Assembly (NCBI GenBank): GCA_016188865.1
Contig: JACPGX010000005.1
Span: forward strand, 75,188-112,080
DNA: 36,893 nucleotides
Direction: 5' to 3'
From: Candidatus Nealsonbacteria bacterium
Lineage (GTDB): Bacteria > Patescibacteriota > Minisyncoccia > Minisyncoccales > MHMH01
A program made the translations under genes and the position numbers. Below are positions 31,054 to 35,488 of the stretch, in pieces. Every line of letters begins with the position of its first letter. Positions within the stretch are counted from its first letter, which is position 1. The notes under the pieces were generated by a model, which was not told the origin of the DNA, did no database searches, and worked only from the letters and a program-made list of their open reading frames with translations.

Positions 31054-31962
31054 ATGTTTATTTCATTAAATAGGATTATAAAATCAGGTTGGGTTGATTT
31101 TAAGCGCAACAGCGGATTGTCTCTTGCCACTATTTTTATTATGGTTTTAGCTATTTCTTTAGCTACTTCGCTTTTCCTTTTTCAGAAAACATCGCAAGTT
31201 CTTACTAAAACCATAGCTGAAAAAGTAGATATGTATATTTATTTTAATACCGATTTGTCTTCCGACGATATTTTGGTGATACAACAAGAGCTTGCTGGCT
31301 TGGCCCTGATTAGGGATATTGAATACGTCTCCAGCGACGAAGCCCTTAAAAGATTTGTTTCCAGGCATAAAAACGATCAAGCTCTTATGGAATCTTTGGA
31401 GGAGTTGGGGGCGAACCCTCTTTTACCGTCATTAAATATCCAAGCTTGGGAGGCCTCGCAATACGCAGCCATATCCAGTTTTTTAAATAATTCCTCTTTT
31501 AATAATCTTATTGCCAAAATAGATTACCAGCAGAAAAAGCCAGTTATTGAAAAATTATCTTCTATCGCTTCCAGCATTAATGCGGCCGGTATTTTCTCAA
31601 GCATAATCCTAGCCCTCATAGCTATTTTGGTCGCTTTTAACACAGTAAGGCTGGCAATTTATAATTCGCGAGAAGAAATTGAAACGATGAGACTAGTGGG
31701 AGCTTCCAATGGGTTTGTCCGCGGACCGTTTTTAGTCCAAGGAGTTATTAGCGGATTTTTAGCAGCTGTAATCACGCTTATAGTTATTGGAGTTTCGCTT
31801 TTCTTCTTAAGCCCGGCCTTGAAATTTATATTGTCAGGGTTTAATATATTCAGTTATTTTGTCACTAATCTTTTTTTGATTTTTTTATCCCAAATATCAG
31901 TAGGCATCAGTTTGGGGTTCGTTTCCAGCTGGTTGGCAATAAGAAAATATTTGAAAATTTAA
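31054..31962 (+). CDS. ftsX: Cell division permease FtsX
   Basis: TM1, a large periplasmic loop, then 3 TM segments. Contains the EIETMRLVGASNGFVRGPF motif. Confidence 0.88.
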   Translation: MFISLNRIIKSGWVDFKRNSGLSLATIFIMVLAISLATSLFLFQKTSQVLTKTIAEKVDMYIYFNTDLSSDDILVIQQELAGLALIRDIEYVSSDEALKRFVSRHKNDQALMESLEELGANPLLPSLNIQAWEASQYAAISSFLNNSSFNNLIAKIDYQQKKPVIEKLSSIASSINAAGIFSSIILALIAILVAFNTVRLAIYNSREEIETMRLVGASNGFVRGPFLVQGVISGFLAAVITLIVIGVSLFFLSPALKFILSGFNIFSYFVTNLFLIFLSQISVGISLGFVSSWLAIRKYLKI

Positions 31963-31965
31963 TTT

Positions 31966-32039
31966 TCCGGGTTCGGCTAATGGTAGGCCAATAGCCTCTG
32001 GAGCTATGAATCCTCGTTCGAATCGAGGACCCGGAACCA
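31966..32039 (+). tRNA. tRNA-Gln (anticodon CTG), CCA encoded
   Basis: Manual cloverleaf: TCCGGGT/ACCCGGA acceptor with the U1-A72 pair typical of bacterial tRNA-Gln, ATAGC-CTCTGGA-GCTAT anticodon arm, CCTCG-TTCGAAT-CGAGG T arm. Confidence 0.85.
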
Positions 32040-32057
32040 TCACATGCTGAGTCAGGT

Positions 32058-32068
32058 GACCGAGAGGC
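32058..32068 (+). repeat. Junction motif GACCGAGAGGC, copy 1
   Basis: Read directly, 19 nt after the tRNA-Gln CCA and 10 nt before a -35 hexamer. Confidence 0.8.
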
Positions 32069-32078
32069 ATTAGAGGGC

Positions 32079-32107
32079 TTTACAAAAGTTTAATTTAGGT
32101 GTAATAT
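32079..32107 (+). promoter_or_regulatory. Sigma70-like promoter of the Zn-ribbon gene
   Basis: TTTACA, 17-nt spacer, TAATAT. Double SD AAGGAGGTAAGGAG at 32122-32135. Confidence 0.5.
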
Positions 32108-32140
32108 AACATTACAAAACAAAGGAGGTAAGGAGAAGCG

Positions 32141-32395
32141 ATGGAAGCCTACAAAACTATCTGCCCGGACTGTGGCCATGTTAGGTTTTGGGTCGGTTAT
32201 AAGACAGGGATCGGCAAAACGCCAGAGCAACTACAGGCGATGCACGACGCTCGAATTACGTGTGTTAAATGTGGTTCCAAGAAAGCAAATACTGAATTAG
32301 ACCGCGAATCAGAAGCTGGTCAAGTGTATGGCGAAAGCTATAAATATGCCGCTGGGATGATTGCGGATATTCTAAAGCAAAAGTTAAAAAAATAA
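32141..32395 (+). CDS. Small zinc-ribbon protein (84 aa), function unknown
   Basis: Contains CPDC...CVKC and has a strong SD. Confidence 0.65.
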   Translation: MEAYKTICPDCGHVRFWVGYKTGIGKTPEQLQAMHDARITCVKCGSKKANTELDRESEAGQVYGESYKYAAGMIADILKQKLKK

Positions 32396-32475
32396 TCAAA
32401 ACGATCTATATTTAAGTGCCCATTTAATCGAATGCGACACTTTTTTAAAAATATAATTTCCCGAACAAAATGCCC

Positions 32476-32486
32476 GACCGAGACGC
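32476..32486 (+). repeat. Junction motif GACCGAGACGC, copy 2
   Basis: Embedded in the imperfect hairpin CCCGACCGAG-ACGC-CTCGGCGGG (32473-32495). Confidence 0.8.
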
Positions 32487-32498
32487 CTCGGCGGGGGA

Positions 32499-32547
32499 GC
32501 CGAAAATAGGCCGAATTTCTCTCTAATAACTAGGTTCTAGACCGGGG
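32499..32547 (+). repeat. Promoter-like junction block, copy 1 (decayed)
   Basis: GCCGAAAATAGGCCGAATTT..CTAATAACTAGGTTCTAGACCGGGG aligns with the blocks at 32933, 33561 and 34171. Confidence 0.6.
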
Positions 32548-32579
32548 ATCACAGCACCAGTCAGCGCAGTATCGTGGCC

Positions 32580-32590
32580 GACCGAGAGGC
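32580..32590 (+). repeat. Junction motif GACCGAGAGGC, copy 3
   Basis: Preceded by AGTCAG..., like copy 1, and followed by a promoter. Confidence 0.8.
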
Positions 32591-32607
32591 GTTAAAAGAT
32601 GGGCGCA

Positions 32608-32635
32608 TTGACATTAAATTGAATTTTGTTAAATT
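32608..32635 (+). promoter_or_regulatory. Sigma70-like promoter of the HTH gene
   Basis: TTGACA, 16-nt spacer, TAAATT. SD AAGGAGG at 32660-32666. Confidence 0.4.
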
Positions 32636-32670
32636 TAAATTAGATATTTGAAAATTTGAAAGGAGGTAAG

Positions 32671-32877
32671 ATGATGAAAGACATCCGAATCGAATTACGT
32701 AATTTATTGAATACTTTTTTGACAAATCATCCTGGCAGCGAACCCGAACTTGCTCGTGAGTTGAGAGTATCAGTACCTACAATCAAGCGTTGGGCCAAAG
32801 GAGAGAGTGCCCCTCATCCCTTCGGATGCAAACCAGTCATTGAGTACCTAAAAAAGAAATTATCCGCAGGGCCGTAA
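32671..32877 (+). CDS. Cro/XRE-like helix-turn-helix protein (68 aa)
   Basis: ELARELRVSVPTIKRWAKGESAP is a typical HTH recognition segment. ATG 32671 lies 4 nt after AAGGAGG. Confidence 0.6.
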   Translation: MMKDIRIELRNLLNTFLTNHPGSEPELARELRVSVPTIKRWAKGESAPHPFGCKPVIEYLKKKLSAGP

Positions 32878-32893
32878 AAAGCCCTGCTTTTTT
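32866..32893 (+). terminator. Rho-independent terminator overlapping the stop codon
   Basis: GCAGGGC / GCCCTGC stem followed by TTTTTT. Confidence 0.75.
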
Positions 32894-32915
32894 ATTTCTT
32901 AATTTTTACCCCCCC

Positions 32916-32924
32916 GACAGACGC
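32916..32924 (+). repeat. Junction motif, degenerate copy 4 (GACAGACGC)
   Basis: It occupies the same position after the terminator T-run and a C-run. Two nt are missing relative to the consensus. Confidence 0.5.
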
Positions 32925-32932
32925 CTAAATGG

Positions 32933-32984
32933 AACACGACCAAAATCGCCAAAATCCCCCTTAAAATCTTGGTTCTAGACCGAG
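32933..32984 (+). repeat. Promoter-like junction block, copy 2 (decayed)
   Basis: AACACGACCAAAATCGCCAAAAT differs at one of 23 positions from 34171-34193. It continues CCCCCTTAAAATCTTGGTTCTAGACCGAG. Confidence 0.75.
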
Positions 32985-33054
32985 TATGCCAGCCGTTAGT
33001 CAACACAGTATCAATAGAAAATAATGGTGCCTGTCCCCATTATCATTATCTCAC

Positions 33055-33083
33055 TTGTTAGTTTGTTTGACTTTTGATAGCAT
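33055..33083 (+). promoter_or_regulatory. Possible promoter of the 121-aa gene
   Basis: TTGTTA, 17-nt spacer, TAGCAT. SD AAGGGGG at 33102-33108. Confidence 0.35.
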
Positions 33084-33113
33084 ATAAAAGTAGTTATTCG
33101 GAAGGGGGTAGTA

Positions 33114-33479
33114 ATGTCTGAGGAAAAAGCTAAAAAGTTGGCAGAAGCCCGCAAGTATGCGGATAAATATTTTCAACCGACTCTAAAAAAGATTTTGAAA
33201 AGAATCAAGAAAGCGTCTTCGAGAGGGTATTTCCATAACGAAATTCATCTGGGCATTGAGATAGAGTCTTTGGTTGCGACAGGAGAATGGACAGAGAAAG
33301 AATTTAGAAAAAAGTTATTGGCCGATAAGATAATCGCGGCTCTCAAAGAGAGGGGGTACGCGGTAATACCTAGTACTGCATCGGGTCATGGTCTTTTGAT
33401 CAATGGGCCAGAAGTGTTACTTGGAGACGATCCAAAAATAATTCCTACCATAATTACTACCTGGACCATTAAATGGTAA
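33114..33479 (+). CDS. Hypothetical protein (121 aa)
   Basis: It has an SD and its own terminator. No family recognised. Confidence 0.6.
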   Translation: MSEEKAKKLAEARKYADKYFQPTLKKILKRIKKASSRGYFHNEIHLGIEIESLVATGEWTEKEFRKKLLADKIIAALKERGYAVIPSTASGHGLLINGPEVLLGDDPKIIPTIITTWTIKW

Positions 33480-33484
33480 ATTTG

Positions 33485-33509
33485 AAAGGCATCATTCGAT
33501 GCCTTTTTT
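33485..33509 (+). terminator. Rho-independent terminator
   Basis: AAAGGCATC-ATTC-GATGCCTTT followed by TTT. Confidence 0.8.
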
Positions 33510-33515
33510 ATCTCC

Positions 33516-33526
33516 GACCGAGACGC
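33516..33526 (+). repeat. Junction motif GACCGAGACGC, copy 5
   Basis: It lies 7 nt after the terminator and is followed by the palindrome GCCTACCGGTAGGC (33546-33559). Confidence 0.8.
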
Positions 33527-33560
33527 GTCGGTGGGACAAGCCCCCGCCTACCGGTAGGCA

Positions 33561-33613
33561 GGCAAAAGCCCTAAAATACCCCTTGCTAAATTTATATTAA
33601 TTTGGTAAGATTG
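33561..33613 (+). promoter_or_regulatory. Promoter-like junction block, copy 3, serving as the hicB promoter
   Basis: GGCAAAAGCCCTAAAATACCCCTTGCTA, 17-nt spacer, TAAGAT. The -10 ends 6 nt before ATG 33618, so the mRNA is leaderless or nearly so. Confidence 0.5.
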
Positions 33614-33617
33614 AAGT

Positions 33618-33854
33618 ATGAGAAAACATAAAGAGAAAATCTATCAATACGAAGTAGTTTTTGATTCTAACGGAGAAGGGTATACAGTTACAGTACCCAA
33701 ACTCCCTGGCTTAGTTACCGAAGGGGACAATTTAAAAGAAGCTCGCGAGATGGCTAAGGACGCTATCCGCTGTTATCTTGAGGCATTGCTTAAGGACAAA
33801 ATGTTGCGCCGGCTATCTGAGACAAAAAGAGAGAAGGTTGAGGTATGCGTATAG
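33618..33854 (+). CDS. hicB: HicB-family antitoxin
   Basis: YEVVFDSNGEGYTVTVPKLPGLVTEGDNLKEAREMAKDAIRCYLEA is the typical HicB N-terminal (RNase H-like) fold signature. Confidence 0.75.
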   Translation: MRKHKEKIYQYEVVFDSNGEGYTVTVPKLPGLVTEGDNLKEAREMAKDAIRCYLEALLKDKMLRRLSETKREKVEVCV

Positions 33855-33861
33855 TTTTATT

Positions 33862-34089
33862 ATGACCAAACTCCCCAGAATACCGTCTGTGTTAGCGATT
33901 AGGGCTCTGAAGAGAGCTCATTTTTATGAATATCACCGTTCGGGTAGTCACATTCAATTACGTCATTTGAATAACTCCAGTTCAAGGATAACTATCCCTT
34001 TTCAGAAAAAAGATTTAAGTCCAAAAACACTAAAATCAATCCTAAAACAGGCCGGACTGAGTATCGATGAATTTATAACTTTAATATAG
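33862..34089 (+). CDS. hicA: HicA-family mRNA interferase toxin
   Basis: ATG 33862 gives MTKLPRIPSVLAIRALKRAHFYEYHRSGSHIQLRH...ITIPFQKKDLSPKTLKSILKQAGLS, the HicA pattern including the GSH catalytic His. It lies 7 nt after the hicB stop. Confidence 0.8.
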   Translation: MTKLPRIPSVLAIRALKRAHFYEYHRSGSHIQLRHLNNSSSRITIPFQKKDLSPKTLKSILKQAGLSIDEFITLI

Positions 34090-34112
34090 CGGTTTTCTTT
34101 TTTCCTATCCCT

Positions 34113-34123
34113 GACCGAGACCC
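34113..34123 (+). repeat. Junction motif GACCGAGACCC, copy 6
   Basis: Followed by the nested stems CCCTT/AAGGG and TCCGC/GCGGA (34121-34154). Confidence 0.75.
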
Positions 34124-34170
34124 TTCTTCTCCGCCTTGAGCGGATTCGAAAGGGCACAGCGGGTCAATGT

Positions 34171-34227
34171 AACACGGCCAAAATCGCCAAAATTTTCCTT
34201 GACAAAATATTGGTTTTGGAGTATACT
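34171..34227 (+). promoter_or_regulatory. Promoter-like junction block, copy 4, the intact helicase promoter
   Basis: AACACGGCCAAAATCGCCAAAATTTTCC, then TTGACA (34199-34204), 17-nt spacer, TATACT (34222-34227). Confidence 0.6.
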
Positions 34228-34243
34228 GTTAAGGTAATTGGAT

Positions 34244-35488
34244 ATGAGACCAATCGGTCTCTTTTATTTTATAACAATGAAAAGTTTTAACAGCGGTAGG
34301 CCGAAAAAATATTTCTATCAATCTCACTATAAAAGTGCGGGTTTTTCTGGTTTGGGACGCAGAAGGCCCATGGGCAGGCCAGTTCAAAAGATAGATCCAG
34401 CCAGATTTATCAACAAGGCGATTCAGGACGAGGGAGTTGAAAATTATACGCCGCAGCACGAATTTCAAGATTTTAAGATTGACCAGCAATTAATCGCGGC
34501 CGTTGCCGCTAAGGGCTACAAAATACCTACGCCGATTCAAGATCAGGTTATACCGCAAATTGTCGATGGCTTGGATGTAGTGGGCATTGCCGATACCGGC
34601 ACAGGTAAAACAGCTGCTTTTCTTTTGCCTCTCATCAATAAAGTTTTCATAAATCCGGAGGAGCAGATTCTGATTGTCGCTCCGACCAGGGAGCTGGCTA
34701 TTCAAATTGATCAGGAGTTTAAATCGTTCGTCAGGGGAATGGGAATGTTTTCAGTTTCCTGCGTAGGGGGCATGGGCATAGGCAGGCAAATTTCGGAGCT
34801 TCGCTACCGCTACAGTTTTATTATCGGCACGCCGGGAAGATTAAAGGATTTAATACAAAGAAAAATGATTAATCTGTCCCAGTTCAATACTGTCGTTTTG
34901 GACGAAGCGGACAGAATGTTTGACATGGGGTTCATCAACGACACGCGTTTTATAATTAACGGCATGCCCAAGAGCCGCCAGACGCTTTTTTTCTCCGCAA
35001 CCATTTCAAATGAAATAGAAAGAATGATTAGGGAATTCACCAAAAATCCAGTCAGGGTTTCGGTGAAAACCAGAGATACTTCAAAAAATGTTGAGCAGGA
35101 TATCATTAAGGTGGGGGAAGGGAGAACAAAATTGGACGTTCTCAATAATCTTTTAAGCCAAAAAGAATTCAATAAGGTGCTCATTTTTGGAAGAACTAAG
35201 TATGGGGTGGAAAAACTTTCGCGAATTCTTCTTCGCGAGGGCTTTAGCGTGGAATCAATACATGGAGATAAAAATAATTCCCAGCGCCAGAAGGCGCTAA
35301 GCATGTTTAAGGATAACCGCGTGCAGGTTTTAGTTGCTACCGATGTGGCTGCCCGCGGCCTTGATATTGCCGATATCAGCCATGTTATTAACTATGATAT
35401 GCCCTCGACTTACGATGATTATATCCATCGCATCGGGCGGACAGGGCGATATAACAAACGCGGTATGGCTCTCACTTTTGTTGATTAG
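34244..35488 (+). CDS. DEAD-box ATP-dependent RNA helicase
   Basis: Q motif F.DF..PTPIQ, ADTGTGKTAAF, PTRELA, LDEADRM, SAT, and HRIGRTGR. ATG 34244 lies 9 nt after AAGG. Confidence 0.92.
   Translation: MRPIGLFYFITMKSFNSGRPKKYFYQSHYKSAGFSGLGRRRPMGRPVQKIDPARFINKAIQDEGVENYTPQHEFQDFKIDQQLIAAVAAKGYKIPTPIQDQVIPQIVDGLDVVGIADTGTGKTAAFLLPLINKVFINPEEQILIVAPTRELAIQIDQEFKSFVRGMGMFSVSCVGGMGIGRQISELRYRYSFIIGTPGRLKDLIQRKMINLSQFNTVVLDEADRMFDMGFINDTRFIINGMPKSRQTLFFSATISNEIERMIREFTKNPVRVSVKTRDTSKNVEQDIIKVGEGRTKLDVLNNLLSQKEFNKVLIFGRTKYGVEKLSRILLREGFSVESIHGDKNNSQRQKALSMFKDNRVQVLVATDVAARGLDIADISHVINYDMPSTYDDYIHRIGRTGRYNKRGMALTFVD

Follow-up and report, generated by a model that had tools for sequence, protein, structure and literature searches.

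Gene exchange in the ultra-small, host-dependent Patescibacteria is poorly known. The window analysed here, a stretch of 36,893 nucleotides from a Candidatus Nealsonbacteria bacterium, holds an array of small genes beside a tRNA-Gln gene, and this array, its reiterated junctions and their probable origin at the tRNA gene are the subject of this report. The tRNA-Gln(CTG) gene (31966..32039, called ctg by ARAGORN and scored by the Rfam tRNA model at 56.8 bits) anchors the array, which begins 1 nt past its 3' end, and would be the attB-bearing gene. Following the tRNA-Gln in the 3' direction are g1, g2, g3, hicB and hicA, and then a DEAD-box helicase that is ~80% identical to the helicases of Nealsonbacteria metagenome-assembled genomes. 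The tRNA, genes, junctions and promoters described below all lie on the + strand, and Pfam and the gene positions bear out the five small genes as the original prediction had set them out.

The first gene, g1 (32141..32395), encodes an 84-aa zinc-ribbon protein with weak Pfam zinc-ribbon matches and is the cargo of what is termed unit 1. Its 50-70% identity with P0121-P0131, proteins of ~250 aa, covers residues 1-82 of these, so that g1 represents the N-terminal domain only; a remnant of the C-terminal domain was searched for downstream of g1 and none was found. Such a lone N-terminal domain fits cargo left from a larger gene. The full-length relatives of g1 adjoin TrmB regulators, in ordinary contexts. 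In other genomes of the Candidate Phyla Radiation (CPR), the g1-type zinc-ribbon recurs as a conserved N-terminal module, and the C-terminal domain joined to it is of at least three kinds (HPHPWP-motif, HD and Cys-rich); a TrmB-family regulator is often adjacent.

The cargo of unit 2, g2 (32671..32877), is a 68-aa orphan weakly resembling Cro/XRE-like helix-turn-helix proteins: its HTH_3 match (E=0.0019) falls under the curated Pfam cut-off, its match to a PHROG transcriptional regulator has E=0.0012, and a search of 5.8 billion proteins returned no homologues. The 121-aa product of g3 (33114..33479), the cargo of unit 3, belongs to a very rare family with only three homologues, all distant, among 1.84 billion representatives; it has no Pfam family, defence-system or fold match (AlphaFold2 (AF2) model confidence pLDDT 78, best PDB match E=0.26). 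Unit 4 carries the toxin-antitoxin pair hicB (33618-33854) and hicA (33862-34089), together 33618..34089. HicB_lk_antitox scores 40.2 bits (E=4e-10) and HicA_toxin 57.5 bits (E=1.5e-15), where both Pfam cut-offs are 27, and with a spacing of 7 nt and PHROG matches the pair has the features of a HicAB type II toxin-antitoxin system. HicAB is the only recognisable cargo of the array, none of whose genes matched known defence systems. In the window region and in the flanks of seven relatives, Rfam returned tRNAs only.

The spaces between these genes are built from repeated sequence. The 11-mer GACCGAGAsGC has five exact copies (32058, 32476, 32580, 33516 and 34113), all on the + strand and within ~2 kb, and zero copies elsewhere in the 36.9-kb window, that is, outside 32058-34123. 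With 0.64 copies expected in the window, and five copies reached in 0 of 100 shuffles, the reiteration first noted is real. The original prediction also held that every junction reuses the same blocks in the same order, which is too strong. Against dinucleotide shuffles, five pairs of junctions do stand out (J2-J4, z=17.5; J1-J2, z=7.8; J1-J3, z=6.9; J0-J1, z=4.4; J3-J4, z=3.5), while the remaining pairs are not significant, so that the sharing is mosaic. Likewise, the 23-mer block is good at 32933 and 34171 only; the weak copies at 32499 and 33561 are recovered by a profile alone, and J0, on the tRNA side of g1, has no ~50-nt block.

All of the blocks previously noted are parts of one composite of ~130 nt, A'-B-psi-C-A'', as is evident from their contiguity in two relatives, described below, together with the alignments of those relatives to J1-J4. 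Its parts are A' (GACCGAGAC…), B (CCAAAAT…), psi (which copies part of the tRNA-Gln 3' half), C, and A'' (GACCGAGAsGC); the remainder of block C, CTAGGTTCTAGACCGGGGATCACAGC, sits where the tRNA 3' half would be. Directly past the tRNA lies the left arm of unit 1 (32040..32068), made of a short C variant (TCACATGCTGAGTCAGGT) and the A'' core GACCGAGAGGC (32058-32068), a type of flank that also follows tRNA-Gln in the relatives' loci L189 and L204. J1 (32472..32597) is a complete composite, with A' at 32472-32497 (core 32476-32486), B at 32498-32522, psi1 at 32523-32555, C at 32556-32577 and A'' at 32578-32590 (core 32580-32590); L008 has a complete copy too. J2 (32912..33015) is a composite without A'', comprising a degenerate A' (32912-32937), B (32938-32962), psi2 (32963-32993) and C (32994-33013). 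J3 and J4 keep decayed right ends only. In J3 (33512..33584), A' (33512-33540, core 33516-33526) is separated from a B remnant (33562-33584) by a palindromic insert of 21 nt (33541-33561). In J4 (34113..34227), the outermost and most decayed, the A core (34113-34121) is separated from the A' tail and B (34161-34197) by an insert of 39 nt (34122-34160) that ends in psi-like GGGCACAGC. A piece in L190, TCCGCCTTGGGCGGA…CAGC, resembles this insert. Units 1 and 2 thus have both arms mapped, and the arms of units 3 and 4 could be placed in part.

Promoters had been predicted for each of the first three genes and for hicBA, and the promoter scan agrees for g1 and g2, as it does for the helicase, but not for g3 and hicBA, whose promoters score under the threshold. 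The g1 site (TTTACA-17-TAATAT, 32079..32107) scores 9/12 and the g2 site (TTGACA-16-TAAATT with TG, 32608..32635), 17 nt past A'', scores 10/12. The g1 site is homologous to the g2 promoter region after A'', as the alignment of J0 with J1b runs for 66 nt from GACCGAGAGGC as far as the promoter and into it (z=4.4), and a relative's locus, L196, has a comparable TTGACG 13 nt past its own A''. The helicase promoter (TTGACA-17-TATACT, 34199-34227) scores 11/12 and occupies the psi position in J4, just as the hicBA promoter-like hexamers (TTGCTA, 33583-33588; TAAGAT, 33606-33611) occupy the psi position in J3. The expectation of at least two terminators of their own was confirmed by hairpins at the downstream end of g2 (32866-32887) and downstream of g3 (33485-33506).

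For comparison with relatives, FtsX was used as the anchor, and the FtsX side proved the decisive one. The order tRNA-Gly, tRNA-Thr, prfB-ftsE-ftsX, tRNA-Gln is conserved, tRNA-Gln follows ftsX in 30 of the 43 relatives' loci, and it is to this tRNA that the modules are anchored in relatives too. Of 35 distinct flanks from relatives, 6 have an exact copy of the core GACCGAGA 20-24 nt past tRNA-Gln, where the background is 0.0007. In L198 and L216, distant Nealsonbacteria relatives with FtsX ~50% identical to that of the window, the module is unsplit: the tRNA-Gln end, C, A and B are contiguous directly past tRNA-Gln. Their flank reads ACGAGTCArCGCAGTATCGTGGATGACCGAGAyGGGTCrrTGGGA...CCAAAAATCGCCAAAT, in which the block-C tail is followed without a gap by the GACCGAGA block and then by the 23-mer block. 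The L198 tRNA 3' half and flank align with J1 over 70 nt (z=22.6), and L198 and L216 align with J2, J3 and J4 at z=6-10 (L216 with J2, z=6.0; L216 and L198 with J3, z=9.9 and 7.2; the B block of L216 with J4, z=6.4).

In three other relatives, unrelated cargo of 0.6-3.6 kb interrupts the module. L196 has tRNA-Gln, C, GACCGAGACGC, a promoter and one open reading frame (ORF) of 157 aa, and then A'-B-psi, which matches J1 at 72 of 80 bases. The 2-kb insert of L211 encodes two envelope proteins, and the 3.6-kb insert of L189 contains a protease, an IS200-like gene, a truncated insertion sequence (IS) integrase and a SET-domain protein. A terminator-like hairpin follows psi in both L211 and L189, as would be expected of a displaced native tRNA flank. 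The site thus varies between species, being fused or empty in L198 and L216, singly occupied in L196, L211 and L189, and occupied in tandem in the window.

A profile built solely from relatives (L008, L196, L211 and L189) matches the window at E<1 exactly at J1, J2, J3 and J4 and nowhere else, and its scores drop with distance from the tRNA: 58.4 bits (E=4.8e-18) for J1, 31.0 (1.7e-9) for J2, 11.7 (1.8e-3) for J3 and 5.9 (0.12) for J4. J1 and L196 are 88% identical over the right end although their FtsX proteins are only 58% identical, and L008 and L189 share 83%, whereas J1 and J2, inside the window, share 60%. Subfamilies of ends therefore cross genomes, a pattern better explained by units acquired separately, each with its own ends, than by duplication in place.

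In 5 of its 6 copies, the psi segment is similar to the 3' halves of tRNA-Gln genes (z=3.1-6.2, with psi2 at 6.2). The tRNA 3' half and its flank align colinearly with psi1 (z=22.6) and psi2 (z=6.0), whereas decay has gone too far in psi3 and psi4 for a call. B shows no likeness to tRNA-Gln (z~0), and a profile of tRNAs alone scores psi weakly (E=1.7). Together these results identify partial tRNA copies; a whole pseudo-tRNA was considered and rejected, as the tRNA-likeness is confined to the 3' half.

The flank of tRNA-Gln is a recurrent insertion hotspot across the clade, as its variable neighbours and recombinases indicate. No right-hand neighbour is conserved among the relatives, and no array gene of the window recurs there. 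The largest family of downstream proteins is a large serine recombinase, present at four loci (L185/L086, L200, L204 and L206), and an IS integrase, LAGLIDADG ORFs (homing endonucleases) and a GIY-YIG fragment are also found at the site.

From these observations, the array is probably the product of tandem accretion, at tRNA-Gln, of recombinase-less integrative units that carry a single gene each or, in one case, the hicBA pair. Four units of ~0.44-0.62 kb (g1; g2; g3; hicBA), none with a recombinase gene, would have accreted successively at the 3' end of tRNA-Gln(CTG). Each unit would be laid out as C-A''-(promoter)-cargo-A'-B, with a left arm of C and A'' (GACCGAGAsGC) that in units 1 and 2 would lead into a promoter reading into the cargo, and a right arm of A' (GACCGAGACgc...) and B. 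The psi after each unit would be the att-type direct repeat expected from a site-specific crossover at the end of a tRNA gene. A new unit would enter at the intact tRNA and shift older units towards the helicase, so that a junction between two units would then read A'-B-psi-C-A'', an attP-like composite, and the outer junctions would be older and more decayed. We infer that the crossover takes place at the tRNA end or psi, that the GACCGAGA repeats serve as arm-type protein-binding sites, and that a recombinase supplied in trans does the work. The units may by now be fixed remnants.

Serial accretion at one att site, one of the two options that had been put forward, is thus supported by the finding that the junctions are reiterated tRNA-Gln 3' halves plus flank and that the same ends bracket unrelated cargo elsewhere. 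An undescribed capture mechanism, as had been suggested, is not needed, because tandem accretion and recombinase-less att-flanked elements fit. The locus is thereby largely explained by a known kind of process, of which the miniature units, the missing recombinase, the long conserved bipartite ends and the host lineage are the unusual aspects.

Several observations weigh against accretion of this kind. There is no recombinase or integrase in the array or among the mid-sized ORFs of the 37-kb window, in agreement with what had been remarked before; a tyrosine integrase is absent among ~45 downstream proteins of the relatives; the loci with a serine recombinase lack the A'-B-psi module; and the tRNA-only profile, as given above, scores psi weakly. 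In L198 and L216 one GACCGAGA joins the two arms and no psi can be recognised past B, unit 4 (hicBA) has no recognisable left arm, and the 39-nt insert of J4 is unexplained. Presence/absence polymorphism was not seen either: all contigs with the exact proteins, from ~8 runs, have the same order. Exact-protein look-ups with FtsX, helicase, g1, g2, g3 and hicB returned the window arrangement only, and the closest other FtsX is 76% identical, with no close sibling genome. The site variation that had been proposed as a check is therefore present between species and absent, in these ~8 runs, from the source population. Finally, the contig that could testify to recent movement, L233, may be a chimera joined through the tRNA. 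Besides these points, the cargo of L196, L211, L189 and L008 contains no cognate site-specific recombinase, four motif scans of viral contigs gave chance-level matches with no extension past the seed, and phage and plasmid collections had no match to the composite.

L233 (Logan SRR12113384_3223237) aligns to 31687-33081 of the window. Its ftsX 3' end is another allele, with 77 differences (28%), and from the first base of tRNA-Gln, through g1, J1, g2 and J2, 1,116 nt are 100% identical to the window. The contig is either the trace of a recent array transfer between diverged genomes or an assembly chimera; its second ftsX allele is not on record elsewhere. Two pairs of contigs from single runs, L232 with L004 and L233 with L002, overlap by exactly 30 nt (k-1), at 32452-32481, which is the start of A' in J1, and at 33052-33081. 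The window contains no exact repeat of at least 20 nt able to cause these overlaps, which suggests alternative paths in those samples. Together with L233, the overlaps are the sole hints that units might be excised as circles and integrate again. Positions 1-18 of L232 are a Nextera adapter remnant (GATGTGTATAAGAGACAG), an assembly artefact.

If L233 is real, it would imply movement between diverged genomes of one community. A bolder and rather unlikely proposal is that tRNA-Gln in Nealsonbacteria and related Patescibacteria could be the anchor of a dedicated platform for gene capture that is active to this day. Single genes would be enclosed by conserved bipartite ends of ~130 nt that supply a promoter, and a recombinase with its gene elsewhere would move them in trans between diverged genomes of the community. 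Such a platform would be a tRNA-anchored functional counterpart of integron cassettes in minimal genomes.

Among other explanations, the one that survives best, though it is unlikely, places the recombination site in the 8-11-bp GACCGAGA core itself. Single-gene circles with one core each would insert at the core 18-24 nt past tRNA-Gln or past a psi copy, genes would come to be flanked by direct core repeats in an integron-like logic with another site and enzyme, and the psi-C-A-B modules would be a pre-existing or co-transferred tandem platform. In its favour, g1, g2 and hicBA are each bracketed by GACCGAGAsGC, and L198 and L216 look like true empty sites in which both arms overlap at one core, a form that fits a crossover at GACCGAGA better than one at the tRNA end. 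The flank of L204, which has a serine recombinase, leaves the consensus inside the core (GTGACCGG|GTTGCG), and in some large serine recombinases attB and attP share a common core of ~8 bp, which also counts for this explanation. However, a second process would be needed for the tandem psi-C-A-B modules, and duplication of a platform in place is itself unlikely when J1 and J2 are less alike than J1 and L196. Moreover, the whole ~130-nt composite rather than the core alone is conserved across genomes, and g3 has no core on its left side.

A local segmental duplication of the region upstream of the helicase, or of the tRNA flank, into which unrelated genes were shuffled later by illegitimate or homologous recombination without a dedicated site-specific system, has a slim probability. 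The 50-nt block common to J2 and J4 does extend into the -35 and spacer of the helicase promoter (z=17.5), that promoter is ancestral in relatives, and CPR genomes are heavily rearranged between species. Yet the same modules stand at tRNA-Gln with no helicase nearby in L196, L211 and L189, an observation that also disposes of the earlier idea that the inner blocks are decayed helicase promoters. In addition, copies from different genomes resemble each other more closely than those of the window do, and all copies have one orientation, a fixed order and a tRNA anchor.

There is very little likelihood that the repeats are simply shared regulatory sites, with GACCGAGAsGC and the A-tract block acting as operator or UP-element-type sites through which, for example, binding of the g2 helix-turn-helix protein or HicB would co-regulate the small genes and the helicase. 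The core does precede the -35 hexamers of g1 and g2 by 10-17 nt, B, immediately before the helicase -35, is made up of phased A-tracts, and it is primary sequence without RNA structure that is conserved. But the distance from core to next promoter ranges from 10 to 76 nt, the core also stands past terminators and in relatives without g2 and hicBA, and the partial tRNA copies and variable cargo are left unexplained. A regulatory role is compatible with arms that also carry protein-binding sites.

An integron-type cassette array without an integrase, akin to a cluster of attC sites lacking integron integrases (CALIN), can be set aside almost with certainty, even though each unit has one gene, the junction ends are conserved and a toxin-antitoxin pair is among the cargo, because 31900-34400 holds no RYYYAAC...GTTRRRY (R''/R') pair on either strand, single-strand folding is no better than that of shuffles (z=-1.0, +0.8, +0.4, -1.4; J3 alone folds better, z=-3.9, owing to the g3 terminator), the covariation term is -0.03, i.e. 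none, promoters are present in the units, and the sites share homology with a tRNA gene end. The analogy with attC drawn in the original prediction thus fails on its core pair, folding and covariation, and no integrase is in the window. A structured-RNA reading of the composite was likewise rejected, with no supported consensus structure or covariation.

Accretion at the tRNA gene has its closest counterparts among known mobile elements. The cis-mobilizable elements (CIMEs) are att-flanked, recombinase-less remnants that are joined by accretion, as described for ICESt1/ICESt3-related islands and for integrative and mobilizable elements (IMEs) (PMC5704250). Like the window array, CIMEs form tandem units 3' of one tRNA gene, separated by direct repeats with a partial tRNA copy; both ends are kept, no recombinase is encoded, and a small regulator and a toxin-antitoxin pair are among the cargo. 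CIMEs are kilobases long, whereas the window units measure 0.44-0.62 kb and hold a single small gene. The window array also differs in that no parental autonomous element with the same ends was found, in its ends, which are ~130 nt when joined and carry a duplicated 11-mer, and in its Patescibacteria host.

Tycheposons are another parallel, in which successive integrations leave partial tRNAs between them (bioRxiv 10.1101/2020.12.28.424599). In these elements and in the tRNA-anchored genomic islands of Prochlorococcus, as in the window array, the host is streamlined, integration recurs at a specific tRNA and pushes older elements inward, partial tRNAs separate the elements, and the island is strewn with degenerate remnants. 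The tycheposon family uses both tyrosine and large serine recombinases. Its members span several kilobases and are defined by a hallmark integrase and replication genes, none of which are in the window array, and there is no protein homology; the logic of tRNA-targeted stacking is all that is common.

Integron cassettes share with the window units one gene each, a reiterated junction and toxin-antitoxin cargo, and their logic is possibly analogous if the GACCGAGA core is the crossover site. Unlike integrons, the window array has no attC cores, folded bottom strand or intI, and it has promoters and tRNA-derived junctions. The elements with large serine recombinases (L185/L086, L200, L204 and L206) use the same tRNA-Gln hotspot, but have no A'-B-psi module, just as the window has no such recombinase gene. 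Serine recombinases are not normally known to leave long direct repeats.

The locus marks the tRNA-Gln flank as a clade-wide hotspot, where one family of conserved ~130-nt ends encloses cargo that differs widely, including, at the lower end, single small genes. Should the units still be able to move, they would rank among the smallest known integrative gene carriers, and the A'-B-psi-C-A'' composite would be an easily searchable marker for gene flow in uncultured bacteria. If they are dead, the locus still preserves, within a reduced genome, a clear history of insertions made one after another and of their decay.

On its far side, the array is bounded by the helicase, whose neighbourhood differs in every species representative and has no tRNA-Gln upstream, so that an empty-site test by helicase synteny is uninformative. 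The core promoter and leader hairpin of the helicase are kept in relatives, while the upstream 23-mer and GACCGAGA are not. The promoter, TTGACAAAATATTrGTTTTGnnnTATACT with its spacer included, is conserved across Nealsonbacteria (L005-L016; window 34199-34309), and so is the leader hairpin GAGACCAAyCGGTCTC followed by a T-run (34246-34270), which looks like a leader attenuator or regulatory element. Judging from the alignment of MKSFNSGRPKK with the N-termini of relatives, the true start of the helicase is probably the ATG at 34277 and not 34238 or 34244. In the two closest helicase relatives, L006 (9751-9835) and L009 (~1720-1752), the helicase promoter is directly preceded by decayed sequences that resemble A' and psi, although neither relative has a tRNA-Gln within 10 kb. 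The ancestral right-hand boundary of the insertion site may have been the helicase.

Further features recur around the tRNA-Gln of relatives. A second structured sequence, …GCCGAGAACyATAGC…CCGCCGCAGGCGG…CCTTCGGGCA, which has no Rfam match, recurs 50-110 nt past tRNA-Gln in L203, L210, L218 and L194, an observation that takes in L190 and L192 as well. Between ftsX and tRNA-Gln, a family of LAGLIDADG-type ORFs is found in L189 (4657-5367), L193 (8912-9676), L218 (2996-3781) and L223 (8960-9847) and represents another mobile gene at the same locus. At 8912-8930 of L196, 17 nt of the 5' part of the common tRNA-Gln allele (GCGGGATCGTCTAATAG) lie between ftsX and the complete tRNA-Gln, which is a different allele; in this locus it is apparently the tRNA gene itself that was replaced. 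The tRNA-Gln allele of the window (acceptor TCCGGGT/ACCCGGA) is unlike those of its closest FtsX relatives and is common to L190 and L192.

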